From a virus: a stretch of 64,000 bases of DNA. Below are positions 17,311 to 63,999 of this stretch, one piece after another (position 1 is the first letter of the stretch; each line of letters begins with the position of its first letter). Where the stretch lies: positions 17,584 through 81,583 of the IMG/VR virus record IMGVR_UViG_3300025872_003406, one strand, 5' to 3'. The notes under the pieces are model-generated. The model was not told the origin of the DNA. It did no database searches and saw only the letters and a list, made by a program, of their open reading frames with translations. The translations under genes were made by a program, and so were the position numbers.

Positions 17311-18261
17311 ATGTCATTACTTTGTGGAAAGAATCCGGCACTTGATGCGGTCAATGCGATCCGCGATCAGATCAAAGCCAAGCTTGCTGACAAGAAGAGC
17401 GCTCTGGGAGGTCTGGCTTCTCAGGTATCTGCTATCACATCAAAGATTTCCGAGCTCCAGGCGAAGGTCACGAACCTTGATTCATTCCAGGCAGAACTTG
17501 CTGCACTCGTAGGAGCAGATGCAGCAAAGATCGCTGCCTTTAAGGAGAAGTGGAAAGGTAAGGTGGCAGAACTGGATGCACTCGTGGCAAAAACTACAAG
17601 TGGAATCGCCGATGCTCTGGACTTCTGTAAAGACGTTCCAAATGTCAAGATGAATCCGGCTACCGGCGCAACAGTCCAGGAGGCCAAGGAGTCTCCCACA
17701 CCAAACACCGCACCGGTTGAAGTTGAACCAGTCAAGGAAACGGTAGTTGATAATTCTCAGAAAGTATCAACTGGAAACTCCGGTGTTATACTGGCAGAAG
17801 CGGAGAGCAAATTCGATGAATTCATACGTCAGCCATACCGTCAACAAATAACAATTCCGCTCTCAAAGAAAGTAACCTCCGCGGTCGATGAAGAGGCGGC
17901 AATACTCCTGTCTGATGAATATAAGAAAGCACGATCGTCGATTTCTATTTTTGGAGGAACAGATGATAAGCCTGAGGTGTTTAACACATTGGAGCAGGCA
18001 AAGCTTAAGAGAAATGCTGCGTCTGAATTATCGAGTCAGGTTGACAAGTACTATGAGATCAGGCTACAGGAAGTATCGCAAGATACCGGTGTATTTACCA
18101 CTATTGACTATTTTTCAATTAAAGTAGAAAGCCTGACCGATAGGTCCATCTACCAGTATATGGAAGACATCAAACCTTGGCTAGAAAAGGTGAATAGCAT
18201 TCTTACTTCCAATTCTGATGCGGCGAAGGACTACTACCGGTACAAGAATAATACCTCGTAA
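17311..18261 (+). CDS. Hypothetical helical protein between gp5 and gp25
   Basis: 316-aa ORF within the baseplate operon. Confidence 0.7.
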   Translation: MSLLCGKNPALDAVNAIRDQIKAKLADKKSALGGLASQVSAITSKISELQAKVTNLDSFQAELAALVGADAAKIAAFKEKWKGKVAELDALVAKTTSGIADALDFCKDVPNVKMNPATGATVQEAKESPTPNTAPVEVEPVKETVVDNSQKVSTGNSGVILAEAESKFDEFIRQPYRQQITIPLSKKVTSAVDEEAAILLSDEYKKARSSISIFGGTDDKPEVFNTLEQAKLKRNAASELSSQVDKYYEIRLQEVSQDTGVFTTIDYFSIKVESLTDRSIYQYMEDIKPWLEKVNSILTSNSDAAKDYYRYKNNTS

Positions 18262-50259: not shown

Positions 50260-51438
50260 ATGGCCTATCATAACGGACCTAAGATAGTCACAGATGATCT
50301 AGTGATGCATTTGGATGCCTCGAATCCGAAGAGTTATCTTGGAGAAACTACTGTCAATCTATTAGGATCTCAGGGACTAACATATGGAGTTTATGCATAT
50401 GCGACTGGTCCCGTAGCAACTTCGACTGCGATATACGATAATTCAATTGCCACTGTCAATCGGTTTACTGTTTCTCAGGTCGTAAATACCGCAAGATCCG
50501 CTTTCTTTCCGACAGTTTCAGTAAATCAGGCATATACCTTTTCGTGCTATATGAGATACAATGGGAGCAACACTGCTTCTCCGTCGTTTGTCATTTCGGC
50601 TGCGAAACCGAATCCTGAAGGAGGAAATACCATTGTTCTGTCCCAGAGTACGCAGACTCAAACCGCCGCAGGAAATGGTTGGTATAGAGTCGTCTATAAT
50701 TTCACAATTTCTTCAAATACTGCTACCGCGTGCATTTTGACGATAGGAGTATCAACTGGGTCCGATACTGCGTATCTCAATAATACCTTTGACGTATATC
50801 AGCCGCAACTTGAGGCAAAGTCATACGCTACAGCTTATGTAGCAAATACTCGTGGGGCTACAGTTGCAACTGGTGGCGGGTTCGCAGATCTTTCTGGAAA
50901 CGGAAATCACTGCACTCTTACTACAACTGGAGTAACAACTGTTTCCACATATAAAGGCGGAGTAGCGCTCGATGGATCTTCCGGATACATTGAATTGCCT
51001 ACTATCAATAATGGAATCAATCGCACTGTAGATATTGTCTATCGCCAGATCAATCTGAATGGAGGCTGGGGTCCTTTGTGGAGAAATGACTGGAGAGAAC
51101 GTATCTTTACCACGTCTGCTACAATCATCAACGCTCCTGGAACATATTACAGCTCTAGCGGTATTCCGGATGGTACCACGAACATTCAGCAATTCTCATA
51201 TACTATCGATGGATTGACTCTGAGATTTTACCGAAATGGTGTGCTTTCTACTACCACTACGATGAACGGATATATGAATCAGGGAGCATACAGCTACCGA
51301 TTTGGATATCAGTGCGGAGGCGCTACTTGCACTAACGTTGCAGTTGAAATTTATTCAGTCAAGTTCTATAATCGAGGATTGACTTCAACGGAGATTCTGC
51401 AAAACTTTAACGCTACAAGATCGAGGTATGGACTATGA
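50260..51438 (+). CDS. LamG-like protein with an inserted carbohydrate-binding-like domain
   Basis: Same N- and C-termini as 49562..50254. The insert contains YTFSCY, GNGWYRV and QLE..SYATAY. Confidence 0.78.
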   Translation: MAYHNGPKIVTDDLVMHLDASNPKSYLGETTVNLLGSQGLTYGVYAYATGPVATSTAIYDNSIATVNRFTVSQVVNTARSAFFPTVSVNQAYTFSCYMRYNGSNTASPSFVISAAKPNPEGGNTIVLSQSTQTQTAAGNGWYRVVYNFTISSNTATACILTIGVSTGSDTAYLNNTFDVYQPQLEAKSYATAYVANTRGATVATGGGFADLSGNGNHCTLTTTGVTTVSTYKGGVALDGSSGYIELPTINNGINRTVDIVYRQINLNGGWGPLWRNDWRERIFTTSATIINAPGTYYSSSGIPDGTTNIQQFSYTIDGLTLRFYRNGVLSTTTTMNGYMNQGAYSYRFGYQCGGATCTNVAVEIYSVKFYNRGLTSTEILQNFNATRSRYGL

Positions 51439-52973
51439 GCGTAATTGGAAATCCAGGAATTGTATCGGATAATTTGGTGTTCTACTATGATGCGAACAAC
51501 ATCAAAAGCTACGTTGGGCAGCCAACTACAAACACAATTCCTAGCCCATCGATAAATGCGTATCCCACATATGGAAATGGATGGGGGTCGTACAACACGA
51601 ACCAGTATGGCAACGGAAACTTCTTTTCGATAGGAACTGTTTCCAGCGTCTCGAATAACATCGTCACTATGAGCGCTAATCATTCATTGCGCTCTTATGA
51701 CGTAATGAGGCCTCAGACCACCGGCGGAGGTGTCACCGCAAATACCGACTATCTCATCAAGAAGTTATCAGATACCACCTTCAGCCTTCATTCCTACAAT
51801 AGTTCTCAGGATGGGTCTCAGGGTTATATTAGTTCTGCGACAAATACACATAAGGTCTATGATGACTTTGCAAATGATGTTCGAGTCTCGATCAATTCCA
51901 CAAGTTTCCCTACGATGTGGTGGGGTGCGCCGCATCTTCCGAACTCTGGACTAGTAAAAGAGATCATTCCAAACGGATTTGATGTGAATCCGCTCGCAAA
52001 GACAAACTGTATTCGACTGCACTATATACGAACTGATGGAGTGATTGATGGAATGTCGTATAACGTAGATGCGACAGTTACACCTGGATCTTCTAATACA
52101 CATTCATTTTGGACTCGAGCAGTCACTCCAGATGCAGTTGGAAAAGGAGTTGGAATGTCCATTTATAATTATGGAGCAAATCCGTACCAGTATTATGGCC
52201 TTAATTTTACTCTTGGACCATTAATGGTATGGCAGAGGCAGACATATTCTTTCACTCCAGTAAACGCCAATATCATTACATACTGGTTTGGAGGAGCATC
52301 GCCGCCGTACAAATGGGATCTGGCAAACATTCAAGTTGAAGCAAATAGTAATGCTACAAACTTTGTGGCAGGAAGTCGTTCCAATATACAAGGATTGCTC
52401 GATCTTACTGGAACAAGCACGATCAGTCTGGCTAACGCCGGATTTGACAGCAGCTCAAACATCACGTTTAACGGTTCTAGTAATTACATCAACGTGGCAA
52501 ATAATTCATCGCTAACTCCCACGAGTAATATGACCTGGGAATTTGTGGTGAATCCTGGAGCTATAGCAACATATAAAAGCATTTTTTCTAAAAATAACTA
52601 TGGCAATTCAACCGGATTCATATGCTTGCATACTGGATCTGGAAGTTTAAGACTGGAAGCTTCGGATGTAGCACAGTCTACCAGGGGCCTCGATGTTTCT
52701 TTTTCCGGGATATTGACTCTTAACACTAACGTTCATTGCGCGCTGACGTATAACGGATCCACGTTTACGCTGTACAAAAACGGAGTATCGGTTGGTACAG
52801 CCACGTGGTCTTACGGTTTAGGAAGCAACAATGTAGCTGACTTTAACATTGGAACTGGGTGGCCTGGTTATTGGAATGGCAAGATACACCTATTCAAGAT
52901 ATATTCTAAAGCATTGTCTGCTTCAGAAGTCTTGAAGAACTTCAACTCGCTAAAAAGCCGCTACGGCCTTTAA
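51435..52973 (+). CDS. LamG-like protein with a larger internal insertion
   Basis: IVSDNLVFYYDA.N.KSY at the N-terminus, FNGSSNYI, and IYSKALSASEV..NFN...RYGL at the C-terminus. Confidence 0.78.
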   Translation: MSVIGNPGIVSDNLVFYYDANNIKSYVGQPTTNTIPSPSINAYPTYGNGWGSYNTNQYGNGNFFSIGTVSSVSNNIVTMSANHSLRSYDVMRPQTTGGGVTANTDYLIKKLSDTTFSLHSYNSSQDGSQGYISSATNTHKVYDDFANDVRVSINSTSFPTMWWGAPHLPNSGLVKEIIPNGFDVNPLAKTNCIRLHYIRTDGVIDGMSYNVDATVTPGSSNTHSFWTRAVTPDAVGKGVGMSIYNYGANPYQYYGLNFTLGPLMVWQRQTYSFTPVNANIITYWFGGASPPYKWDLANIQVEANSNATNFVAGSRSNIQGLLDLTGTSTISLANAGFDSSSNITFNGSSNYINVANNSSLTPTSNMTWEFVVNPGAIATYKSIFSKNNYGNSTGFICLHTGSGSLRLEASDVAQSTRGLDVSFSGILTLNTNVHCALTYNGSTFTLYKNGVSVGTATWSYGLGSNNVADFNIGTGWPGYWNGKIHLFKIYSKALSASEVLKNFNSLKSRYGL

Positions 52974-52994
52974 TAAATAGAGAAAACATTTACT

Positions 52995-55900
52995 ATGCCA
53001 GACATCGTCATCACACCTAATAGAGGCACGAGCACCAATCCGAAGATTGACTTCACAGGAGTCACGACTGGCACCATCAAGCTCGAGGTGCTCACAGATG
53101 GCTCGTTGTCATTCAATGGAGCTAATGGATCGCTGTTCAGCATTGCAGATAGCGTGACAGGCAGTCTGATGTCGGTCAATGATACCTCCGGTCTGCCGAT
53201 TCTGGAGGTGTTCTCCACAGACAAGGTAGTGATGGGTAAGTATGGGCAGAATACACTGGTGGTGGATGGAACAAATGTTGGTATCGGTACTGCAAGTCCT
53301 ACCTCGAAGTTTGAAATTCGTGGAGGCACCGCAAATCAGACTAATGATGCGACTTTATATGTCACCGCTGATAATGATAATGATTGGGCAGTAGTAGTTG
53401 ATAAATGGAGATCTAATGCTACTGAATACGGCCTAAGAGTCATAACCGGCAGTGCAGCGTCCTATGCTTTTGCTGTTTACGGCAACGGTTCATTGAGCAC
53501 TCGCATTGCAGGAAACGGAGACATTTATGCTCCAAGAATGTACGATTCGACTGCTACTGCATATTATGTTGATCCAGGATCTACGTCAAACTTAAATGGC
53601 CTGACAGTTGCTGCTACAATTACTGGAAATGCAGCAACTGCTAGTAGTGCCGCAGCAATTACTGGTGGTATTCCAAGCGGCACAGACTATTACATTAACC
53701 TTCGAGTAATTCGTAACAATAATGCTGCATCTACTGATGGAATGTATATTGGTTATGGAAATGCTGGTAGCGGTTTAACGCGTCTATATGGCGGCGGAAG
53801 TAGTACCAATCACGCATATGTAGATGTCAATGGAGATATCTGGCGTTCCTCTGGTGGTTATCAGTATGTCTATAATTCCGGAACGTGGAGTGGTGTTAAT
53901 ATTGGTGGTAATGCCGCGACTGCCACGACTCTGCAGACAGCACGAAACATTGCCGGTGTCTCGTTCAACGGATCTGCTGATATCACATTAACCGGACAGA
54001 ACATTTCTACGAGTAGCGGTACTGCTGCAAACGACATCGAAGTTGCAAAGTACCTTCGTTGGAAGAACTATGGTAATAATCATATTTTGATCGATGCATC
54101 AGCCGGGACAAATCCTGGCGGCGGCGCAATTGACAGATATACTCCTGGAAATACAATCAACAGCACCGGAGCTGGATCAAATACCTGGGGCGAAGCAATT
54201 AGTCTAATGGGCTGGAATGGATCCGCCACATATGGCGTCCGAGTTGACAGAGCTCGTTCTATTGATAATCAAGCGAACTCTGCTACAATCACGGCTGCAA
54301 CCTCTAATACTGCTAATCAGATCGTTCTGCGCGATGGATCTGGTAATATATTCGGACAAGAGATATATGCTAGCGGTTGGTTTCGAAGCTATGGTTATCA
54401 AGGAATCTATAACCAAGATTACCAAACGCATTTCTACGCTGGTGGTACTGGATATTATAATCTTGCAGGAAATAGTTCAGCAACGGACGGAGGTCTAATT
54501 TTTAGATCTGGACATCAATCTACCATCAAGGGTCGAGTTTATTGGGATGGTGCTGGATTTGGTCTATTGAACGACAGCGGAAATTGGGCAGTACGATCAA
54601 ACTATGGTGCAGCCTATTCTGGCGGATCTCTGTACGGTGCCTGGGATAAGCGCAATGCAAGCAATACCGGTGGCATCACAGTTCCTGGCGTATTCATTCA
54701 GTCTGGTGTCACATCAGGTGCACCTTCCGCGATTCAGAACGGTGATCTATGGTGGAACACCGATACCGGCAAATTGAAGATCTACTGGAGTTCTGCATCA
54801 GCCTGGGTCGATGCGACGCCAGTGCCGGACATGGCCGGATACTACACAACTGGTGGCGGTAACATCAATGGCAACGTCAATGTCAGTGGCTTGCTGGAAT
54901 CAACAGGAAACATTACTGCGCGCATTGGTCAAACCTATCCAGTAAGTATCGGATCGCATCCAAGTTATAGTGGAGCAAATTATGGCGCTCTCTGGAGACC
55001 TGGATCAAATCCTGTTTTACTGTTTGATGCCAGCAATACTTATGTCAATGCTCCAAGTCTTGGTGCCGCCGTATCCTTCCAGGTTGGTAACACAACACAC
55101 GCATACGTCAATTCCAACGGAGTTACCACCAACGGTAGCTTCATTATGTCGGGTGGATTTACTCTGTCTCAGACTGGAGGATATGGCCAGACAAATAACT
55201 GGATCCATCTGAACGGTTACCACGGCTTATATAGTACCAATAACAGCGCACACATTTATCCAAATAATAATAGTAGCTATGGAGCATGGTCCATAAATGG
55301 ATCGCGCAATAGTTGGGGTGGAATTTACGACGCATACAGCGGTATTGCATGGATGGGCGACGCTGGTGGAAACGGCGGATTATATAGAGAATCAAATGGC
55401 CGTTGGTATATCTACCATAATACGGCACATAACTGCACAGCTATCGGAAGTTCTAATACAACTTCTGGTTACGCTATGCAGGTCACTGGGAGTGCATATG
55501 TTACCGGATCTGTAAATATAGCCGGTAACACAGCAATTCATGCTGGAAACTATAATTCTTATGCTCCAACCCTGACTGGTGGCGGAGCATCTGGAAGTTG
55601 GGGAATCAGTGTAACAGGTACATCGCGCTATCTAGCTCACATTGATGGTCCAAGAAATCTTTCTGATCGTAATCCAAATTGGTCAGCAAGAACCGCAACC
55701 TTTGACTTTATTGGCGCCGGTACAGCCGGTACCTCAGGAAATTATGCCGGCGTTTTAACATTCGTTCCATGGGATGGAACTACTGGGAGCACCGGAGATG
55801 CGTCTTATCAGTTAGCTTTTGGAAGCACAGCGACTAATGGAGGAGGGATTCCACACCTTCGTATCAGAAAGGGTATCGATACTACATGGAATAGTTGGTA

Positions 55901-57053
55901 CACAATTCCTATAGTCGGGGTTAATACAGGATACCAAAGCAGCATTTATGTCGATACTTTTTACGATCAAGGTGATACTAATTATTATCTAGATCCTTCA
56001 GGTACATCAAGAGTAAATACCGTAAGTTTTGTCAGTGGAGCTACATTTGGCCCATATCTTCAATATAATAATCAATCCAATTTACGTCTTCAAGCCGGAC
56101 AGCAGTCTGGGGATATTGGCATAAGTGGTTATGATTTTAATGGAAATTGGAAATTTCAATTATACGGAGATAGCAGCGGTTATGGATTTTTGAACGGAAA
56201 CTGGGCAGGATGGGATCTGCTGAAAAGTGTAAGCGGTAACCTATATCTAAATAATCAAAGCACATATTACATTGGCACTAACGAGATATATTATAATAGA
56301 GTTTATGGCGTAACGGATATTAGATCTCCGATCTTTTACGATAATAATGATACCGCATACTATATTGATCCAACTTCGGGGCAGGCAAATAGCGAAGGCG
56401 GAAAAATCAAGTGGAACTTTACAGTCAACGGCGAAGGTGCAACCAGCGGCCGGGGTCTGGCTCTTTATCCTTCCTATACATCTAGCGTTCCGACATATGG
56501 AATCACATTTGCCCAAACCGCATCCCTCGGTACTCATGGAAATGTGACTGCAGATTGGGCAACGTATTTTACGATGAACAATACTGCCAATCGTGGCTGG
56601 ATTTTCCGCGACGGCAATACACCAGCGAATGTTGCGTCTATCAACAATGCTGGAAGAATGCGAATTGCTTCATTAGGAGTTAATACTGATGCTTCTGCCA
56701 CAAATGGTGAAATCCGCGCGACGGACAATATTACAGCATACTACTCAGACGAGCGACTCAAGACCAGACTTGGCGCCATCGAGAATCCGATCGAGAAAAT
56801 CAAGTCACTTTCCGGATTTTACTTCGAGGCTAATGAAACTGCTGTCGCTCTTGGTTACCAGAAGAAGCGCGAGGTTGGTGTTTCCGCTCAAGAGGTCCAG
56901 GCGATCCTTCCCGAGATCATTGCGCCTGCACCTATTGACGACAAATACATGACCGTTCGTTATGAGAAACTGATCCCGCTGCTGATCGAGGCTATCAAAG
57001 CTCAGCAGGCACAGATCGAAGAACTGCAGAAACTCATTAAGGAAAAGGTCTAA
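52995..57053 (+). CDS. Tail fibre protein with C-terminal peptidase S74 chaperone
   Basis: 1352 aa. C-terminal YYSDERLK...GVSAQEVQAILPE...VRYEKLIPLLIEAIK. Preceded by TAATAAATAG. Confidence 0.88.
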   Translation: MPDIVITPNRGTSTNPKIDFTGVTTGTIKLEVLTDGSLSFNGANGSLFSIADSVTGSLMSVNDTSGLPILEVFSTDKVVMGKYGQNTLVVDGTNVGIGTASPTSKFEIRGGTANQTNDATLYVTADNDNDWAVVVDKWRSNATEYGLRVITGSAASYAFAVYGNGSLSTRIAGNGDIYAPRMYDSTATAYYVDPGSTSNLNGLTVAATITGNAATASSAAAITGGIPSGTDYYINLRVIRNNNAASTDGMYIGYGNAGSGLTRLYGGGSSTNHAYVDVNGDIWRSSGGYQYVYNSGTWSGVNIGGNAATATTLQTARNIAGVSFNGSADITLTGQNISTSSGTAANDIEVAKYLRWKNYGNNHILIDASAGTNPGGGAIDRYTPGNTINSTGAGSNTWGEAISLMGWNGSATYGVRVDRARSIDNQANSATITAATSNTANQIVLRDGSGNIFGQEIYASGWFRSYGYQGIYNQDYQTHFYAGGTGYYNLAGNSSATDGGLIFRSGHQSTIKGRVYWDGAGFGLLNDSGNWAVRSNYGAAYSGGSLYGAWDKRNASNTGGITVPGVFIQSGVTSGAPSAIQNGDLWWNTDTGKLKIYWSSASAWVDATPVPDMAGYYTTGGGNINGNVNVSGLLESTGNITARIGQTYPVSIGSHPSYSGANYGALWRPGSNPVLLFDASNTYVNAPSLGAAVSFQVGNTTHAYVNSNGVTTNGSFIMSGGFTLSQTGGYGQTNNWIHLNGYHGLYSTNNSAHIYPNNNSSYGAWSINGSRNSWGGIYDAYSGIAWMGDAGGNGGLYRESNGRWYIYHNTAHNCTAIGSSNTTSGYAMQVTGSAYVTGSVNIAGNTAIHAGNYNSYAPTLTGGGASGSWGISVTGTSRYLAHIDGPRNLSDRNPNWSARTATFDFIGAGTAGTSGNYAGVLTFVPWDGTTGSTGDASYQLAFGSTATNGGGIPHLRIRKGIDTTWNSWYTIPIVGVNTGYQSSIYVDTFYDQGDTNYYLDPSGTSRVNTVSFVSGATFGPYLQYNNQSNLRLQAGQQSGDIGISGYDFNGNWKFQLYGDSSGYGFLNGNWAGWDLLKSVSGNLYLNNQSTYYIGTNEIYYNRVYGVTDIRSPIFYDNNDTAYYIDPTSGQANSEGGKIKWNFTVNGEGATSGRGLALYPSYTSSVPTYGITFAQTASLGTHGNVTADWATYFTMNNTANRGWIFRDGNTPANVASINNAGRMRIASLGVNTDASATNGEIRATDNITAYYSDERLKTRLGAIENPIEKIKSLSGFYFEANETAVALGYQKKREVGVSAQEVQAILPEIIAPAPIDDKYMTVRYEKLIPLLIEAIKAQQAQIEELQKLIKEKV

Positions 57054-57056
57054 TCT

Positions 57057-58148
57057 ATGTCAGTCCTTAGTTTTCCAGCATCACCTACTTCCGGTACTCG
57101 GTATATTTCACCGAATGGAATCACCTATTTCTACGCAAATGGTAGTTGGAATACCGATGGTGCATCGCTGAGCCCAAATCCAACTCAACAGAACCCATTT
57201 CGATATCGCACAATCTATACGCGCGGATATGTTCACTGCGGATATCAGAACGGATCACCCTGGAGAAATACAAATCGTACTCTTCATGTGACAGATACGA
57301 CTACCAACCTAGGTGATATGATGGATAATAATGCGTCCTATATCGATGGCGGATTTAGCGACTATAATACCTATGTCTTTAATAATTCTGGCAGCGTAGG
57401 TGGAACATCCGCCACAGTGTCATCGATGAGCATGGTGACTGAAACGCTTCGCACATATTCAAATACTCGTGATCTAAAAACATCTCGAGCAAACTGTAAA
57501 GCATTGATGAGTCCTGGATTGACAGCAATCTATATCACCGGAGGAAATCAAGCATCAACGGATAAGTTTGATACTGTTACGGATACAATGTTATATGCTG
57601 GAAGTGCTCCATCTGGAGCAACTGCGGGTGGAACTGGTGGTGGTCTAAGTGGATTCTTCGGTGAGTTCAAGGGGTTGGTCGGAGCAAATGGCACGTCAGG
57701 CCTATTTGACTGGGCTACAGAATCCTGGACCTCTGGAACATGGAGTAGTTCGGCATCATTCAATAATGCTGGCGCAACTGACGGCCAGCCTAAAGGCCTT
57801 TCGAGTAAATGGGGATATGGCTACAACGCAAACGGAAGTTACGGCGGATCATCTACTTACTATAAGTTCAATGATACAACAGGAGCATATCTTTCCGCCC
57901 CTTCTCGTCCGTTCAAGGCCGGCGAAGAAAACTGTCAGATCGGACAGGACTGGGGATATATTCTAGGAATGTATAACGATATCGGTGATGGACAAAATAA
58001 TCGTTCTCACAAGACATCTTACTTGACCGATACCTCCGTAGAATTAGGATCCTCTGGGCAGCCAAAAGGTCATGGCGGAATGTCATCCGGAGCGTGTGGA
58101 ACTGGTAGTGTTACTCTTCTCGGTGGAACGATGGGAACAATGATCTAA
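57057..58148 (+). CDS. Gly/aromatic-rich probable virion protein (beta-propeller-like repeats)
   Basis: N-terminal FPASPT.G..Y...G..Y...GSW fibre-type motif. GYxxGG and DKFDTVTD Kelch-like repeats. Confidence 0.65.
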   Translation: MSVLSFPASPTSGTRYISPNGITYFYANGSWNTDGASLSPNPTQQNPFRYRTIYTRGYVHCGYQNGSPWRNTNRTLHVTDTTTNLGDMMDNNASYIDGGFSDYNTYVFNNSGSVGGTSATVSSMSMVTETLRTYSNTRDLKTSRANCKALMSPGLTAIYITGGNQASTDKFDTVTDTMLYAGSAPSGATAGGTGGGLSGFFGEFKGLVGANGTSGLFDWATESWTSGTWSSSASFNNAGATDGQPKGLSSKWGYGYNANGSYGGSSTYYKFNDTTGAYLSAPSRPFKAGEENCQIGQDWGYILGMYNDIGDGQNNRSHKTSYLTDTSVELGSSGQPKGHGGMSSGACGTGSVTLLGGTMGTMI

Positions 58149-58150
58149 CT

Positions 58151-58738
58151 ATGAAATACTTTTTAGCAAAATTCCTGCGCTACGTGCCTCAGATCGATGG
58201 AGTAGAACATATCAGCGCCGTCGATAATTTCAACATCATCAAGGTGAGTACGGATCAGGCACTTGTTGAACTTCAGTCTCATCCAGATGAAATTCCATTG
58301 GTTGAAATTACTGAGATTGAAGCCACAGAGGCATTCAAGTTTTACGGAGAAACGCGCGGATACCGTAAGGTATATTCTGACTACGCCGGCCTTGAGCCCG
58401 ATGCAGATGAACTGGCCAAAGGTCAACGCAAGACAAAGGTCTATCTGGCTGACAGCTTAAAGCCTCATGTGATTTCTCTGATGAAAAAGGCGTTTAAGTT
58501 CCATGTCAACGAGGAAATGGAGCATCGCAAGCATCATGACCACGATTGCTATGATAAAGCTCAGCACGATAGTCTACTTGCTCAGGTGGATGGTTTTACC
58601 ACAATTGAGCAGATCGTAGATGCTCGTGAATCACTTCTGGGAATCGAGATGTGCAAAGATCGTGCATCAAAGTTAGGCAAGTGGGATCACGAGAAAGACA
58701 ATCGAATAGATCGAGTCAACTTCGGTATTCAGTTTTAG
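58151..58738 (+). CDS. Hypothetical protein with His-rich patch
   Basis: 195 aa containing HRKHHDHDC. Confidence 0.75.
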   Translation: MKYFLAKFLRYVPQIDGVEHISAVDNFNIIKVSTDQALVELQSHPDEIPLVEITEIEATEAFKFYGETRGYRKVYSDYAGLEPDADELAKGQRKTKVYLADSLKPHVISLMKKAFKFHVNEEMEHRKHHDHDCYDKAQHDSLLAQVDGFTTIEQIVDARESLLGIEMCKDRASKLGKWDHEKDNRIDRVNFGIQF

Positions 58739-58757
58739 AACCCGTATAAATTATATT

Positions 58758-59468
58758 ATGAATGAATCTGAAATTTTAGAATTTGTAAATCAGAATGAGA
58801 ACTCGCTAGGAATGTCGGACTTTCAGTCTCGATATTTCGTAGTCAACTCGCAGGTCACAAATTACCGCAGAGTACGTCAGGCTCTTGTAGAACTCGATAC
58901 TCGAATCGGTATGCTCAAGCAAATCCAGCGCGAGCGAAAGAAGAGAGTAATACAGAAAGAAATGCTTCTACGAGATATTGCGAATGAGCCAGATGATCTC
59001 AAGAAACAACTGCTTCAGGTAGATGTCGAGCAAGCCGATTGGGACATTCATATGTTCGATAAGAAAGAACGGATGTGCCAGAATGAGATGAACGGATTCA
59101 TTCAGATGATAAAGGATCTCGTTCCTGATATTGCTGAGCTCAAGAAATTTGCAGAGCATAATGAGTCAGAGGAGCGCACCTATTGGATCACTCGTCTGGC
59201 AAAGCAGGCAGCAATGGATCTGAATACCATTGGTCGAGTCAGCCAGGGTAATATGGATGCCATCCTAATGATGCCGCTACCGGACGTAAATGAAGCACTT
59301 GGCCTCGCCGTTAAGTACAATTTGGTACTCGGTAAAGGCATGGAAGCAATCGGTCAAGGCGTGATGGAAAAGGCAGGTCTGCTGAGTGATGGAATTAACT
59401 ACATTGATAATGTTGCAAACGAGCAGCTGAAGCTCGAGCAGAACAAGACCGCAGGTGAAACTCTTTAG
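58758..59468 (+). CDS. Coiled-coil hypothetical protein
   Basis: GMSDFQ..FVV, YRRVRQAL.EL and YWITRLAKQAAMDL...GR...GN motifs. Preceded by TATAAATT (58745-58752). Confidence 0.78.
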   Translation: MNESEILEFVNQNENSLGMSDFQSRYFVVNSQVTNYRRVRQALVELDTRIGMLKQIQRERKKRVIQKEMLLRDIANEPDDLKKQLLQVDVEQADWDIHMFDKKERMCQNEMNGFIQMIKDLVPDIAELKKFAEHNESEERTYWITRLAKQAAMDLNTIGRVSQGNMDAILMMPLPDVNEALGLAVKYNLVLGKGMEAIGQGVMEKAGLLSDGINYIDNVANEQLKLEQNKTAGETL

Positions 59469-61089
59469 TATACCGCTCAATCCTAAGCTCACAGAAAATC
59501 AGTTTCATTCGTTTGTTACGTTCTGTCAGGAGCATCGGGATTACATCTACGACATCTATTTTACCTGTCGCATTCCTCCGTTCAATCAGGATGCGATGGG
59601 CGATGTCTTTCTGAATCCAGAGGATCATCAGAGCGCAATCTACACTGCGCTGCAGATGCCAGCATTGACTGGAATTCCGATCTCTGCAACGTTCAATAAC
59701 ATATCGGTACGGCCAGATCAAAAGAACCTGCAGATCTGGATCGATAACTTTCAGGCACTATATGACTCGGGCGTTCGTTCCTGCACGTTGCCTCATACTC
59801 ATTGGCTGCTGACCGGTCAGATTCAGAAGCAGTTCCCTGAGCTGTTCATCAAGAATACGATCCTGCGTGCTGTGAAGGAACCACGAGATGTTGCTAAACT
59901 CGCAGAGGCCGGATTCCATTATGTCAATCTTGATCGAGCGCTGATGCGCGATGAGGAACGGTTGAAAGAGATCAAGCGAGTCAAGGACAAATACGGAATC
60001 AAACTTTCGCTGCTCGCAAATGAAGGATGCGTCGGTGGATGCCCAGTGATGGATGAACACTATCAGTTCAACAACACACGGACCGATGGACCGCAGTACT
60101 TCACTGACCCGATCAGCCGAGTGAGCTGTCAGCATTGGCACACGAAGGATTCCGCGATTCAGCTCAAGAATGCGAACTTCCCACCGTGGCGAGCAGACTG
60201 GCTACGCTTTCAAGAACTAGGCATCGATGTCATCAAGATGCACGGCCGCGAGAACAGTGATCGGCTAGAGGAGACGATGGATATCATTCGTCGCTTTGCT
60301 CGTGGCGAGGAGATCCTGTTTGATAATTTTAACGCCTATATCGCAGAGACGAACCTAGTGGACAAGCCGATCAATCTCTGGCGAGAGAAGATTCGCACCT
60401 GTAAGTTCGACTGCTGGGACTGCAACTACTGTGACAAGGTCTGGAAGTCAAAGGGCAACAATAATGACAGGTTAGTCGCCGCAGTATCTCAGGCTCTGAT
60501 TGATAGCGCAAATCAAAGCGTAGGCGAAACGCCCGATGGTCTGACATCGGACAAGATGAAAGCATTGCTTAACTCGTTGGCTGCAATATCTGCCACGTAT
60601 CTTGAGGTCGGTGTTCTCAATGGTGCAACGTTCTGCTCGGCGCTCAAAGGTAATACTTTACAAGCATTTGCAGTCGATCACTGGAAAGATCAGACAAAAG
60701 CTGCAAACGGAAAAGATGTTGTCGGATCCAAGCAACAGTTCATTCAGAACGTCCAGAAGTACAAGGGGCAAAATACCGTCGTGCTGTTTGACTGTCACTT
60801 TCTGCAGGTCGATAAGAAACAGCTGCCTCCGATCGACCTGTTCTTCTATGATGCGGATCACTCCGAGCAGGCAAACTATGCTGCGATCAGATACTTTGCG
60901 GATAGTTTGGCTAATAAAGCAATTCTGATCTTCGATGATGCGAACTGGGATGGTGTAGTTGCTGGTGCTCGTCGTGGGATTGCTGATTCGAAGCTCGAGA
61001 TACTCTACGATAAGATCATACTCAACGCGCAGGAGGACGACGCGATGTGGTGGAATGGATTCTACATCGCAGTCGTGAAGAAACAATGA
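59455..61089 (+). CDS. Peptidase U32-family-like (Fe-S) domain fused to a class I SAM-dependent methyltransferase
   Basis: N-terminal domain: NLDRAL, LLANEGCVGGCP...H, SC..W, KMHGRE (compare U32 KIEGR) and CKFDCWDCNYCD. C-terminal domain: YLEVGV..GATF, VDHW, DLFFYDADH and LIFDD.NW (Methyltransf_24-like). Confidence 0.75.
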   Translation: MKLFSIPLNPKLTENQFHSFVTFCQEHRDYIYDIYFTCRIPPFNQDAMGDVFLNPEDHQSAIYTALQMPALTGIPISATFNNISVRPDQKNLQIWIDNFQALYDSGVRSCTLPHTHWLLTGQIQKQFPELFIKNTILRAVKEPRDVAKLAEAGFHYVNLDRALMRDEERLKEIKRVKDKYGIKLSLLANEGCVGGCPVMDEHYQFNNTRTDGPQYFTDPISRVSCQHWHTKDSAIQLKNANFPPWRADWLRFQELGIDVIKMHGRENSDRLEETMDIIRRFARGEEILFDNFNAYIAETNLVDKPINLWREKIRTCKFDCWDCNYCDKVWKSKGNNNDRLVAAVSQALIDSANQSVGETPDGLTSDKMKALLNSLAAISATYLEVGVLNGATFCSALKGNTLQAFAVDHWKDQTKAANGKDVVGSKQQFIQNVQKYKGQNTVVLFDCHFLQVDKKQLPPIDLFFYDADHSEQANYAAIRYFADSLANKAILIFDDANWDGVVAGARRGIADSKLEILYDKIILNAQEDDAMWWNGFYIAVVKKQ

Positions 61090-62096
61090 TTGCAGGGCTT
61101 GAATATCTCTGGATGATCTTCTTCGTGATGATCGTCTCTGGCATTGCGAAGGAACACAATCTCTTCATGCCTCTGTACTCGTACATCAAGGATTCTTTCC
61201 AGAATAACCGCCTGGTCCTTTTCCTGACAAGTGCACTTGGAGGCATCCTGCCCATCGAAGGTAGAGTAACTGTGAGTGCCGGTGTCCTGGATACTCTGGC
61301 ATCCAAGAAATGTGTGTGCGGTAGACAGAAAATGGGAATCGTAGACTACCTATCGACTCATCACTATTATCTCTGGAGTCCACTTGAGAAGACCGTCATC
61401 TTGCCGATGGCCGCGATGGGACTGACCTATGGGGCATGGCTGGGAATCATATGGCCACTACTCTCGGTGACGTCATTGTTTATTGTACACTACGTGTTCT
61501 GGCGTGTAAATGAAGAAGATATTCAAATTGATTTCACTCCATTCAAGATGAGCGCGATCATGAGAAACGTCATGCCATTCTTCGTAGCGATTGGTACCTA
61601 TGCCTGGCTCGGTGGCGACAAACATATCTTTGCGATATTCGGAACTCTGGCACTATATTACGTATTCTTGACGCAGACCTGGGATCTGAAGAAACTGAGG
61701 TCGTACATCAAGTGGGATGTTCTGGTTACCGTGGCGGTCGTGATCGTGGCTGGAAACTACTTCAAGTCTCAGAGTAATCAGATCACAGAGATGATTCGTT
61801 CGCACGGGTCAAGCCTGGCGGTCGCGTCACTTCTGAGTTTTGTGGCCAGTTTTTTCATGGGATCCAGTGGAAAATTTATCGCCCTGGCAGTTCTGACATC
61901 CAGCATATTTGGCCCACAGTATTTTCTATGGTTCTTTGCGATTGACTATGCCGGTTATCTCTTGAGTCCGACACACAAATGCGTGGCGGTCGGTAATAAA
62001 TACTTCGGCACGCCTCTCAAGGATTATTACAAAGTTCTGGGAGTTTGGTGCCTATTATTGATTGCTACTGCTTCAGTATTCACATTCATGCTATGA
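61086..62096 (+). CDS. Multi-pass inner-membrane permease (ArsB/NhaD/CitM ion-transporter-like)
   Basis: 336 aa with about 9-11 hydrophobic segments. GGILPIEGR and GYLLSPTHKC hairpin-like motifs. ATGA-coupled to the upstream gene. Confidence 0.7.
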   Translation: MIAGLEYLWMIFFVMIVSGIAKEHNLFMPLYSYIKDSFQNNRLVLFLTSALGGILPIEGRVTVSAGVLDTLASKKCVCGRQKMGIVDYLSTHHYYLWSPLEKTVILPMAAMGLTYGAWLGIIWPLLSVTSLFIVHYVFWRVNEEDIQIDFTPFKMSAIMRNVMPFFVAIGTYAWLGGDKHIFAIFGTLALYYVFLTQTWDLKKLRSYIKWDVLVTVAVVIVAGNYFKSQSNQITEMIRSHGSSLAVASLLSFVASFFMGSSGKFIALAVLTSSIFGPQYFLWFFAIDYAGYLLSPTHKCVAVGNKYFGTPLKDYYKVLGVWCLLLIATASVFTFML

Positions 62097-62893
62097 AAAA
62101 ACTCACTACACTATTCTTCGTAATCTCTTCCATTGCACTTGCAGCGGATACTCAGGAACTTGAGGTCTTTCGAGTCACCGCGAAGTCCTATGCTCCATTC
62201 GAGTCTGTCGGCGAATACCAACAGCCGGCCTGGACGCTGACTCGTAAGTTTCCGTCCACTCGAGTCTACGTCATGACTCCGCCACGGGCAGTCATGTACG
62301 AGAAATGGTTTGATATCCGTGACAGGCAAGACGGTCCTGCCCAGATTCGTATGCGCGATGAGTTTGCGTTTGGCCTGGGAAATCGTCTGGAGCTTGACCT
62401 CTATGCTCATACGGTATATGATGGACCTGTCGGAAATCAGAGGTTCGGCTGGCGCGGATTCAGCTGGGAGGTCCGGTATGCACTCGCTGACTGGGGAAAG
62501 CTTTGGGGAAATCCGACTCTTTACTTTGAGCACAAACTGCTGAACGGAAGTCAGGGCATTGAACCAAAGCTTCTGCTCGGAGACCGAATTGCCGGTACTG
62601 ATTGGATCTGGGGTCTGAACGCCATCTATGAGGCAAACCTGAGCGGGCCCAAGGAATCAGAGTATGCTGCGACGTTTAGCATCTCAAAGATCATCACGAA
62701 GAATCTGACTCTGGGAATCAGTGCCATGTATCGGTACAATGACTATGACGGAGGGTTCTCTGAGCTGTATGCGGGCCCAAATATGCAGTACAGGTTCAAT
62801 GGGAACTCACACCTGAGCCTGGAAGTAATGCCCAGACTACTCAAGGATGGATACGACAGCCGTACGCTGTTGATCTTTGCCTGGAGATTTTAA
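62093..62893 (+). CDS. Secreted outer-membrane beta-barrel protein
   Basis: Signal peptide MKKLTTLFFVISSIALA, alternating amphipathic aromatic beta-strands and a C-terminal beta-signal LIFAWRF. ATGA-coupled. Confidence 0.72.
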   Translation: MKKLTTLFFVISSIALAADTQELEVFRVTAKSYAPFESVGEYQQPAWTLTRKFPSTRVYVMTPPRAVMYEKWFDIRDRQDGPAQIRMRDEFAFGLGNRLELDLYAHTVYDGPVGNQRFGWRGFSWEVRYALADWGKLWGNPTLYFEHKLLNGSQGIEPKLLLGDRIAGTDWIWGLNAIYEANLSGPKESEYAATFSISKIITKNLTLGISAMYRYNDYDGGFSELYAGPNMQYRFNGNSHLSLEVMPRLLKDGYDSRTLLIFAWRF

Positions 62894-62906
62894 TAAATAG
62901 ATACCT

Positions 62907-63317
62907 ATGGCACTCACATATACCTGGAAACTCACTTCCCTAAAGAAAAAGAATAGCGGATCACTCAACGGAGTGGTCTTTCAAACATATTGGCAGAAGA
63001 CTGGTACAGATGAAAATGGTCATACCGGTACATTTTCCGGAGCGACTCCATTTGATCCCGCCCAGATCGACACAAATAACTTTGTGGCATTCGATCAGCT
63101 CACAGAAGCTACGGTTCTCGGATGGATTCAATCCGTCGTGACTGGCGCATACGAAGAGCACGTCAATGAGCAGATTCAAAAGCAGATCGATGAAAAGAAC
63201 AACGCATCTGCAGATGTTATGGCTGGATCTTTCCCATGGGATCCTCCAGCTGCAGTCGTTCCGGATCCTGCTGTACCAGCGGTTCCTCCTACGACGACTC
63301 CGCCTCCAGCGGGTTAA
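62907..63317 (+). CDS. Hypothetical fibre-associated phage protein
   Basis: YTWK...W..TGTDENG...F..FDQLTE..VLGWI motifs and a Pro-rich tail. Preceded by TAATAAATAG. Confidence 0.75.
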   Translation: MALTYTWKLTSLKKKNSGSLNGVVFQTYWQKTGTDENGHTGTFSGATPFDPAQIDTNNFVAFDQLTEATVLGWIQSVVTGAYEEHVNEQIQKQIDEKNNASADVMAGSFPWDPPAAVVPDPAVPAVPPTTTPPPAG

Positions 63318-63339: not shown

Positions 63340-63371
63340 ATGCTAGCCTGAGTAATCGGGCTAGCATTTTT
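63340..63371 (+). terminator. Intrinsic terminator
   Basis: ATGCTAGCCTGA-GTAA-TCGGGCTAGCAT followed by TTTT. Confidence 0.85.
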
Positions 63372-63375
63372 GCTG

Positions 63376-63383
63376 TATAAATA
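63376..63383 (+). promoter_or_regulatory. T4-type late promoter TATAAATA
   Basis: Exact consensus 7 nt before ATG 63391. Confidence 0.8.
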
Positions 63384-63390
63384 GATACCT

Positions 63391-63999
63391 ATGGCACTAC
63401 CTGTATCGCCTAACAGCATTTCGTTTAACAATATCAACCAGGAGCTTGGTAGGGCTTCTCCCTACAATCAGACGGTTGCATTGAACGATTCTGTGGTTCG
63501 AACCTTATTTCAGAGAACAACAGCCGGTAGCTCCGTCGCGATGAGCGATGGATGGGGTAAGAGTAATTTCAGCGCTCAACCATCTTCTGTAACTGTTGAT
63601 TATGTTGGCGCGTATAACGCTAGAGTAAATTGGTCAAACGGTTCTAATTATTATAGAACTAGAATATACTCTACTAGTAGCGGCGGTACCGCACTATATG
63701 ATTCTAGTTCTGCCATCTATTCGTCTACAGCTTTTACAAATTTGCAAAATCTAAGTCCTACTACAACATACACTCTTTATGTGTGTTATGTTAATTCCTC
63801 TGGCGCAGAAGGCCCAAGAACTGCCGCGGCATCAAGTATTACTACTAAGACTGTCAAGAACCTTGCATCTGGAGCAAACAGCGTTGTTTATTTTGGTACA
63901 AAAGCCTACTATAAATTTACTAGCTCCGGAAACTTTACAATTACTCAAAAGGATAATGCAAATTTATCATTCGCCTATGACTTAGTTGGAGGCGAATGA
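63391..63999 (+). CDS. Virion/adhesin-type protein with fibronectin type III-like domain
   Basis: ISFNNINQELG...MSDGWGKS N-terminus (gp38-type adhesin-like). FN3-like motifs VNWS...Y and NLSPTTTYTLYV...G.EG. Confidence 0.65.
   Translation: MALPVSPNSISFNNINQELGRASPYNQTVALNDSVVRTLFQRTTAGSSVAMSDGWGKSNFSAQPSSVTVDYVGAYNARVNWSNGSNYYRTRIYSTSSGGTALYDSSSAIYSSTAFTNLQNLSPTTTYTLYVCYVNSSGAEGPRTAAASSITTKTVKNLASGANSVVYFGTKAYYKFTSSGNFTITQKDNANLSFAYDLVGGE

Follow-up and report, generated by a model that had tools for sequence, protein, structure and literature searches.

A conserved phage cassette behind a tail-fibre gene encodes a U32-like barrel-methyltransferase protein, with a permease and beta-barrel pair often attached

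The stretch analysed here, called the window, comprises 64,000 nucleotides (nt) of the viral record IMGVR_UViG_3300025872_003406 of IMG/VR (positions 17,584 to 81,583), which is 81.6 kb long and estimated to be about 50% complete. Six tightly packed open reading frames (ORFs), designated A to F, lie on the + strand between positions 57057 and 62893, directly 3' of a tail-fibre gene. Comparison with other phage genomes firmly identified them as a conserved phage module with a core of A, B, C and D, to which a transport pair of F and E is often attached. The six genes and the two domains of the enzyme D are as follows (aa, amino acids; SAM, S-adenosylmethionine).

57057..58148, + strand: A, 363 aa, rich in Ser, Thr, Gly and Asn, phrog_1417 (= T4-GC351, 'sericin-like'), with a propeller-like predicted fold
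58151..58738, + strand: B, 195 aa, phrog_1604 (= T4-GC352)
58758..59468, + strand: C, 236 aa, helical hairpin, phrog_1409 (= T4-GC353); Ralstonia phage RP12 has an orthologue
59455..61089, + strand: D, 544 aa, GTG start, phrog_1458 (= T4-GC354)
59455..60489, + strand: N-domain of D, residues 1-345, a U32-like 8-stranded TIM barrel with invariant cysteines
60490..61089, + strand: C-domain of D, residues 346-544, a class I SAM-dependent O-methyltransferase of the cation-dependent type (Methyltransf_24)
61086..62096, + strand: E, 336 aa, a multi-pass DUF401 membrane permease
62093..62893, + strand: F, 266 aa, a secreted beta-barrel of the outer membrane, similar to Phenol_MetA_deg and DUF6662, with FAWRF as its last residues

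The spacing of the genes was read directly from the sequence. A begins 3 nt after the fibre stop codon, gaps of 2 nt and 19 nt separate A from B and B from C, C and D overlap by 14 nt, and the D-E and E-F junctions are each formed by ATGA. An original prediction, made from the letters of this DNA, had described six co-oriented genes after the fibre gene with a 2-nt gap, a 19-nt gap and three overlaps (two of them ATGA), and both the ORF list and the sequence agree with it. These overlaps of start and stop codons hint at translational coupling. A megablast search of the cassette block gave no match among 50,697 phage records, and the phage therefore has no close sequenced relative. The sequencing runs containing the block are labelled freshwater metagenomes, with no RNA run among them, and psbA was not found in the 81.6 kb of the about half-complete record.

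The conservation of the core was analysed by tblastn against the same 50,697 phage records. D was detected in 126 of them (123 cyanophages and 3 Ralstonia phages), always below 60% identity, and A in 121. Position and PHROG membership place A-B-C-D as T4-GC351, 352, 353 and 354 (phrog_1417, 1604, 1409 and 1458) in the same order behind the fibre genes of P-HM2 and Syn33; tblastn confirmed A, C and D in these two phages and gave no match for B there. The cassette directly follows a fibre gene in the window as well as in P-HM2, Syn33 and MbCM1. In the Ralstonia jumbo phage RP12 an A-like gene comes first, then a small one, C, a D N-domain of 346 aa, and E. Among uncultured viruses, the census of D in IMG/VR covered the best 80 of 509 loci; A was found upstream of D in 59 of the 60 loci with room for it, and C was detected in 75 of the 80. 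The block recurs in hundreds of viral contigs, and the cassette is thus far beyond what chance would produce. The sequenced phages and the IMG/VR neighbourhoods agree with each other on the expected co-occurrence of the genes in related phages. Model marine cyanophages, including P-HM2, P-SSM4, Syn19, Syn33 and S-RIM2, hold the core, annotated only as hypothetical. Searches of the literature yielded no description of this cassette, of cyanophage U32 proteins, or of a phage peptidase U32 together with a methyltransferase and a tail fiber; the available part of the main text of PMC3037559 does not name GC351-354.

D is the enzyme of the core. Its model (predicted local distance difference test, pLDDT, 84.7) shows a TIM barrel of eight strands and, C-terminal to it, a Rossmann methyltransferase; the N-terminus of D is conserved from residue 2-4 in homologues. 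An exhaustive structural search with residues 1-271 returned the U32 protein Mk0906 (5d88_A) as the best solved match (Z 16.2, root-mean-square deviation 3.2 A, 221 of 247 residues), the other TIM barrels reaching Z 13.4 or less; Foldseek agreed on Mk0906 (E-value 1.6e-7, TM-score 0.66 by target) at an identity of 11%. As foreseen for the N-terminal domain, the fold is a TIM barrel, with a U32 protein as its closest solved structure. Only 329 relatives of this domain were found at an E-value of 0.001 or better among 1.84 billion representative proteins, and the ten distant relatives scanned against Pfam matched no family. When 51 diverse relatives are aligned, no column is invariant except those of seven cysteines, C192, C196, C225, C316, C320, C323 and C326. 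A profile-profile comparison (hhalign) of these 51 sequences with a set of 10 real U32 domains, which are PF01136-positive and come from Myxococcota and Verrucomicrobiota genomes, gave a moderate match (probability 67%, E-value 5.1e-5) over 141 columns of the barrel; the LDR/PRE segment aligned in register, as did the asparagine that follows strand 3. Sequence searches of solved structures returned nothing above noise, with a best E-value of 0.64 for D and of 0.061, to designed TIM barrels, for the 51-relative profile. D is accordingly regarded as U32-like, probably descended from the U32 fold, and as a separate, unannotated family.

The second domain of D was identified by Methyltransf_24 (PF13578) on residues 383-495, with 38.8 bits against a cut-off of 26.3. 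It aligns structurally to cation-dependent O-methyltransferases at Z 14-16 (Rv0187, MeT1, SpnH and TrmR, the last at Z 14.7), so that the predicted fusion of a Cys-rich domain to a SAM methyltransferase is seen as a TIM barrel followed by Methyltransf_24. The residues E384, G386, G390, D408, D466, D494, D495 and N497 are invariant in 33 homologues, and we take them to belong to the glycine-rich SAM loop and to the acidic and Asn metal ligands. D is acidic, with an isoelectric point (pI) of 4.8-6.2 across 33 homologues.

E had been predicted to be a multi-pass permease, and it passes the DUF401 model (PF04165) with 50.2 bits against a cut-off of 24, covering model positions 62-385 of 393. It misses the TIGR00529 equivalog cut-off (64 bits against 378.4) and lies near citrate-transporter families. 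Its invariant motifs fall into two similar halves, GRVxVSAG...THHYYLWSPLE and GSSGK...SPxHKC, and the invariance of the His and Cys residues H92, H93, H297 and C299 holds in 15 sequences, including those of RP12 and marine phages. The description of F as a signal-peptide barrel ending in F is supported by a signal-peptide-like N-terminus, a terminal phenylalanine and relatives in barrel families. F itself matched no Pfam family, PF13557 included, and gave no match in the sequence search of solved structures; 9 of the 28 aligned members of its family match PF13557 (best E-value 1.6e-8), and its Atlas neighbours by feature and structure carry PF13557 or DUF6662. Residues 21-29 of F (window 62153-62179), which follow the signal peptide, read ELEVFRVTA, a segment that had been described as TonB-box-like, and the consensus of 28 homologues is L-x-E-V-x-V-T-A. 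F, with its 266 aa, falls well short of the size of a classical TonB-dependent transporter. A search of 201 genomes of the Myxococcota phylum for DUF401 returned only two weak matches and added no cellular context, and nothing relevant was found in the literature on cyanophage porins or permeases.

The neighbourhoods of E and F were then compared across IMG/VR. In the uncultured freshwater relatives, E follows D in 55 of the 74 D loci with room for it, within 300 nt in 51. Relatives of F at 57-74% identity occur in 63 viral loci, and clustering of their F proteins gives 19 groups at 95% identity and 9 at 80%; these loci also contain E (59), a U32-like gene (54), C (52) and A (47). F abuts E in 58 of the 63 loci, in the order F-E in 53 and E-F in 5, and the two lie apart in one locus; two of the four F loci without E have under 200 nt of room. 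In one viral locus (L260) a third arrangement was observed, F, A, C, D, E, with the barrel gene upstream of A. The adjacency kept in both orders, together with the overlapping stop and start codons, argues for E and F being a functional pair tied to D. Independent recent capture of the permease and the barrel had been named as an outcome that would speak against a common system, and what was found instead is a recurrent adjacent pair tied to the U32-like gene. Cellular relatives of F, at 33-61% identity, come from metagenome-assembled genomes of Bacteroidota, Planctomycetota, Verrucomicrobiota and Myxococcota; one of these loci (L087) appears, from visual inspection of its ORFs, to be a genuine Bacteroidota contig.

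Most F loci are represented by a variant cassette (L229) that holds A, C, a phrog_1604 protein, a radical-SAM gene, a standalone U32-like gene (355 aa), a standalone Methyltransf_24 gene (229 aa), F and E, in this order, the start of the Methyltransf_24 gene overlapping the U32-like gene. The split methyltransferase is present in 53 of the 63 F loci, and the existence of this split but adjacent form supports a functional link between the two domains of D. The radical-SAM gene (3039-4037 of L229) lies directly upstream of the standalone U32-like gene; it occurs in 45 of the 63 F loci and in none of the 80 D-fusion loci, and it was not found in the window or in the 81.6 kb of its half-complete record. 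NCBIfam models covered no more of the L229 radical-SAM protein than its cluster-binding N-terminus, and its subfamily is not assignable.

A distant relative of the U32-like gene defines a sister clade, D2, with proteins of 400-450 aa that have the same seven cysteines as the N-domain of D. Its census comprised 80 loci kept of 157 viral contigs. The ten members scanned matched no Pfam family and so have no methyltransferase domain by this test, and no close member was found among sequenced phages. A protein of about 135 aa is encoded directly upstream of D2 in 43 of the 80 loci. Copies of a fibre-like cluster occur in 42, two to three per locus in the maps inspected, and one member of the cluster carries a T7 tail-fibre N-terminal domain; an S74-type fibre match lies upstream in 20. 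Directly downstream of D2, a tryptophan-halogenase homologue (PF04820, E-value 1e-110) was found in 20 of the 80 loci and a 2-oxoglutarate (2OG) oxygenase in 12. Positions 7525-10822 of L165 are an example from this clade. A halogenase gene is present in 32 of the loci in all, and these form 3 clusters at 70% D2 identity and thus represent few independent lineages. Another D2 subclade follows regA in the replication module, showing that the linkage to fibre genes is not universal. At the corresponding post-fibre position of phage Syn9 (32965-36070 of its record), a tandem of two tryptophan-halogenase genes is found with several genes for 2OG-Fe(II) oxygenases, and related cyanophages hold T4-GC351-354 at the position of the Syn9 halogenases. 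The F-E pairing, the split form of the U32-like and methyltransferase genes with a radical-SAM gene, and the D2 clade beside a halogenase are new here.

The remaining core proteins, the propeller-like A, B and the helical hairpin C, accompany the enzyme D as fixed partners. A matched no Pfam family. The neighbours of its Atlas model (pLDDT 0.62) are viral proteins of the 'sericin-like' and Gly-rich kinds as well as Kelch propellers (TM-score 0.68-0.71 by query). The alignment to Kelch proteins would fit the earlier description of A as propeller-like, but no Kelch or other Pfam model matches the sequence. The His patch HRKHHDHDC attributed to B is present; it lies in a variable insert, is missing from all six close homologues aligned, and has R126 as the only invariant residue of its region in these six. 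A functional metal site at the patch was rejected because the patch is not conserved. A phrog_1604 member of 246 aa is also encoded in L229 (2299-3036). Comparison of B with this protein by hhalign gave nothing (probability 2.3%), and on the PHROG evidence, both matching phrog_1604, they are provisionally taken as one family. The phrog_1604 protein, matched with the 246-aa member, is present in 34 of the 80 D loci and 44 of the 63 F loci, and B of the window itself in 11 further D loci. C was modelled (pLDDT 85.5) as a long hairpin of helices to which additional helices are joined, in keeping with the coiled-coil protein that had been expected. Among solved structures C matched only generic coiled-coil hairpins (best Z 9.9), which give no functional lead, and in the viral structure library it matched uncharacterised proteins of cyanophage S-ShM2 and Ralstonia phage RP12. 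A co-fold of D(1-345) with C (score 0.00, mark 0.32) bears neither way on their pairing. A relationship of C to the small protein c1 of the D2 clade was rejected (hhalign probability 0.4%).

The sequences flanking the cassette were searched for transcription signals, and the following features were found.

52973..52979, + strand: ATAAATA motif, T4-late-promoter-like, in the context TTAATAAATAGA, 15 nt before the fibre ATG
52995..57053, + strand: tail-fibre gene; its 1352-aa product carries a Peptidase_S74 chaperone domain at the C-terminus (Pfam/PHROG)
62907..63317, + strand: G, encoding a DUF7936 protein; it has an ATAAATA motif to itself and is the gene that immediately precedes the terminator
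63340..63367, + strand: strong terminator-like hairpin with a 12-bp stem and a run of T; TATAAATA stands 3' of it at 63376, ahead of the next gene

The motif at 52973 is the only one of its kind upstream of the cassette on the same strand within about 10 kb, and the tail-fibre gene is the presumed first gene of the transcription unit. ATAAATA sites were found at 52973 before the fibre gene, at 62893 before G and at 63377 within the TATAAATA that precedes the next gene; a fourth copy lies at 61996, inside E. The T4 late-promoter word TATAAATA occurs 8 times in the window, against 1.7 copies expected. Between 52973 and 62893 the 61996 copy is the sole late-type motif, and no convincing terminator was found in this interval. 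Operon anatomy therefore suggests that the fibre gene and A to F may form one late transcript; the membership of G in the cassette is uncertain. The near-identical sequence ATAAATAGATACCT stands directly before the ATG of G (62907) and that of the next gene (63391), at 62893-62906 and 63376-63390, and the fibre gene at 52995 is preceded by the related ATAAATAGAGAAAAC. The distance from the late-type motif to the start codon is 15 nt for the fibre gene and 7 nt for G and the gene at 63391; a distance of 7 nt would leave almost no leader for a ribosome-binding site. Directly upstream of the fibre gene, an ORF of 512 aa (window 51435-52973) is rich in Asn, Ser and Thr and fibre-like in appearance.

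The function proposed for this module draws on what is described for U32 proteins. In the available parts of PMC6599085 and PMC10990095, TrhP and RlhA are U32 proteins needed for the prephenate-dependent formation of 5-hydroxyuridine (ho5U) and 5-hydroxycytidine (ho5C) (PMC6599085), and UbiU-V are iron-sulphur (Fe-S) U32 proteins that take part in ubiquinone synthesis without O2 and use prephenate as the source of oxygen (PMC10990095); both sources agree with the view, taken in the original prediction, that U32 proteins are Fe-S-dependent, O2-independent hydroxylation factors. We tentatively propose, as plausible rather than probable, that the genes form a conserved phage tailoring cassette that methoxylates an aromatic substrate, is coupled to solute transport and is probably transcribed late with the fibre gene. 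The barrel of D, with its seven cysteines as putative Fe-S sites, would hydroxylate an aromatic carbon without O2, as is supposed for UbiU/UbiV, TrhP and RlhA with prephenate as the oxygen donor. The fused Mg-type O-methyltransferase would then methylate the new hydroxyl and leave a methoxy group. In the freshwater lineages that have them, F and E would most likely carry a small solute across both membranes, whichever the direction, the candidates being the aromatic compound, as substrate or as product, and a metal destined for the Fe-S sites.

As to the target, our leaning is towards a small aromatic molecule, ahead of a virion protein and of RNA. This leaning follows from the two-membrane route, the tailoring-type accessory enzymes and the acidic pI of D, and also from the 'phenol degradation' name of the PF13557 family, the position of E near citrate transporters and the halogenases and 2OG oxygenases of the sister clade. 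Flavin halogenases and 2OG oxygenases are typical tailoring enzymes. A virion protein appears nearly as likely a target because of the constant company of fibre genes and A, B and C, and RNA or DNA is the target that we favour least.

Several observations weigh against the methoxylation proposal. The constant company just mentioned fits a virion-related target at least as well. D matched PF01136 at no E-value of 0.1 or better, and the U32 profile match, moderate only, does not span the cysteine region. The cysteine spacing of D, C-x3-C-x28-C ... C-x3-C-x2-C-x2-C, stands against C-x6-C-x15-C-x3-C in the real U32 set (C182, C189, C205 and C209), so that D lacks the four-Cys motif of the 4Fe-4S type; neither the Pfam model nor the cysteine spacing supports the earlier assignment of D to the U32 type. 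Direct hydroxylase activity of U32 proteins had not yet been shown in vitro according to the available part of PMC10990095. The D of RP12 has no methyltransferase, and methylation is hence not essential to the core. The transport pair is optional: most sequenced marine cyanophages with A to D have neither E nor F, and E was detected in only 12 and F in none of the 50,697 phage records, compared with 126 for D. In S-CAM4, E lies about 58 kb from D, and 19 of the 74 IMG/VR D loci with room for E are without it. Finally, the flanks of 29 cellular F loci contained no homologue of E or D and no other conserved neighbour, and gave no functional hint.

Among the alternatives, a doubtful but possible one is that D and, in sister cassettes, halogenases, 2OG oxygenases and a radical-SAM enzyme would modify aromatic residues of A or of the fibres post-translationally, with B and C as assembly or presentation factors and E and F supplying a metal or cofactor. 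Such a role would fit the position of the cassette directly behind the fibre gene here and in P-HM2, Syn33 and MbCM1, the accompaniment of D by A, B and C across cyanophages and by an A-like gene and C in RP12, the location of D2 genes behind fibre-like genes, and the halogenase and 2OG oxygenase genes of the post-fibre position in Syn9. Operon anatomy, too, suggests co-transcription with a structural gene. The cyanophage halogenase VirX1, a trimer with a large open active site whose natural substrate is not known according to the part of PMC8407142 available, is also counted on this side. Against a virion target, the available parts of PMC6599085 and PMC10990095 name no U32 protein that acts on proteins, A to D are annotated as hypothetical and not as structural in the P-HM2, Syn33 and RP12 records, a dedicated two-membrane solute route would need a separate explanation, and the adjacency to fibre genes may reflect only a variable island. 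That there is no system at all, just such an island gathering unrelated accessory genes behind fibre genes, is very improbable. Other phages do hold denV, an esterase, halogenases and 2OG oxygenases at the same position, and E and F are optional; but A, C, D and E stand in one order in cyanophage relatives and in a Ralstonia jumbo phage alike, the U32-like part is found both fused to the methyltransferase and as a gene adjacent to it, the adjacency of F and E survives in both orders, and the start/stop overlaps suggest translational coupling.

It is unlikely, though less so than the island, that E and F form an uptake pair for a metal such as iron, feeding phage Fe-S enzymes and carrying no organic substrate. 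The invariant H92, H93, H297 and C299 in THHYY and SPxHKC, and the co-occurrence of E and F with two presumed Fe-S enzymes, the U32-like and the radical-SAM protein, would agree with this; His and Cys can bind organic substrates too, however, the relatives of F are labelled 'phenol degradation' and not metal channel, and no characterised DUF401 member was found in the literature. A nucleic-acid enzyme that acts like TrhP plus TrmR, converting pyrimidines of tRNA, rRNA or phage DNA to the 5-hydroxy and on to the 5-methoxy form, is improbable. The characterised non-quinone U32 proteins do act on RNA pyrimidines, with an O-methyltransferase added in the B. subtilis operon (PMC6599085, available part), and TrmR is among the structural matches of the C-domain of D; yet that match is tied with many generic O-methyltransferases, D is acidic, it has no Pfam match to Peptidase_U32_C, a domain of TrhP (PMC6599085, available part), and the linkage to a propeller, a barrel and a permease is without parallel in RNA modification. 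More speculative, and rather unlikely as a whole, is the idea of 'fibre-locus tailoring clusters', in which interchangeable aromatic chemistries (U32-like hydroxylase with O-methyltransferase, flavin halogenases, 2OG oxygenases, radical-SAM enzymes) would serve a propeller-type fibre protein, through modified residues or through a made or imported ligand, and so tune host recognition. Such a ligand would be a small methoxylated or halogenated aromatic compound bound by the propeller, and its import, where it is not made, would go through the barrel-permease pair.

If the methoxylation of an aromatic substrate proposed above is correct, D would be a new and very divergent branch of the poorly understood U32 hydroxylases and the first such enzyme in a virus, and it would bring O2-independent chemistry into an oxygen-producing host, provided that this phage, like its marine relatives, infects a cyanobacterium. 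It is unusual for a phage operon headed by a fibre gene to contain so tight a pair of outer-membrane barrel and inner-membrane permease, and E and F would give an experimental handle on DUF401 and on PF13557-like barrels. The link to phage halogenases could also help to find the natural substrate of VirX1-type enzymes.

Compared with known systems, the transport proteins resemble their nearest families incompletely. E is like DUF401 (PF04165), whose cut-off it passes, and unlike the TIGR00529 equivalogs, whose cut-off it misses; F is like Phenol_MetA_deg and DUF6662 through its family members and structure neighbours, although PF13557 does not match F itself. Neither DUF401 nor PF13557/DUF6662 had a characterised function in the literature found. 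The cellular relatives of F differ from the phage cassette in having no E or D homologue in the flanks examined. The cassette shares with VirX1 of Syn10 and with the Syn9 halogenases a phage-borne tailoring of aromatic rings, presumed for D, on natural substrates that are not known; its chemistry differs from that of the halogenases, which use flavin, O2 and halide, and the block has no halogenase.

The enzyme itself can be set beside three U32 proteins or pathways. Mk0906 (PDB 5d88) is the best structural match of residues 1-271 and lacks the extra C-terminal segment of about 75 residues in which D has the invariant C316, C320, C323 and C326; the low identity of the two was given above. With UbiU/UbiV, D has in common a U32-type barrel, conserved cysteines and a presumed hydroxylation of an aromatic ring. 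In the ubiquinone pathway of UbiU/UbiV, O-methylation follows hydroxylation. Cyanobacterial hosts use quinones other than ubiquinone. D also differs from UbiU/UbiV in that no UbiT-like partner was seen, in its moderate profile match (67%) and in its place beside fibre genes. The Bacillus subtilis operon trmR-trhP1-trhP2 (yrrMNO), in which TrhP1/TrhP2 are YrrO/YrrN and TrmR is YrrM, makes 5-methoxyuridine at position 34 (mo5U34) via ho5U34, as described in the available part of PMC6599085. D differs from TrhP in failing PF01136, in the absence of Peptidase_U32_C, in its cysteine spacing and in its acidity, and the phage parts differ from yrrMNO in being fused or adjacent within a fibre-gene operon with propeller, helical, permease and barrel partners. 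As in yrrMNO, however, a U32-type protein is genetically coupled to an O-methyltransferase of the cation-dependent type, and the phage cassette may follow the same logic of hydroxylation and then O-methylation.

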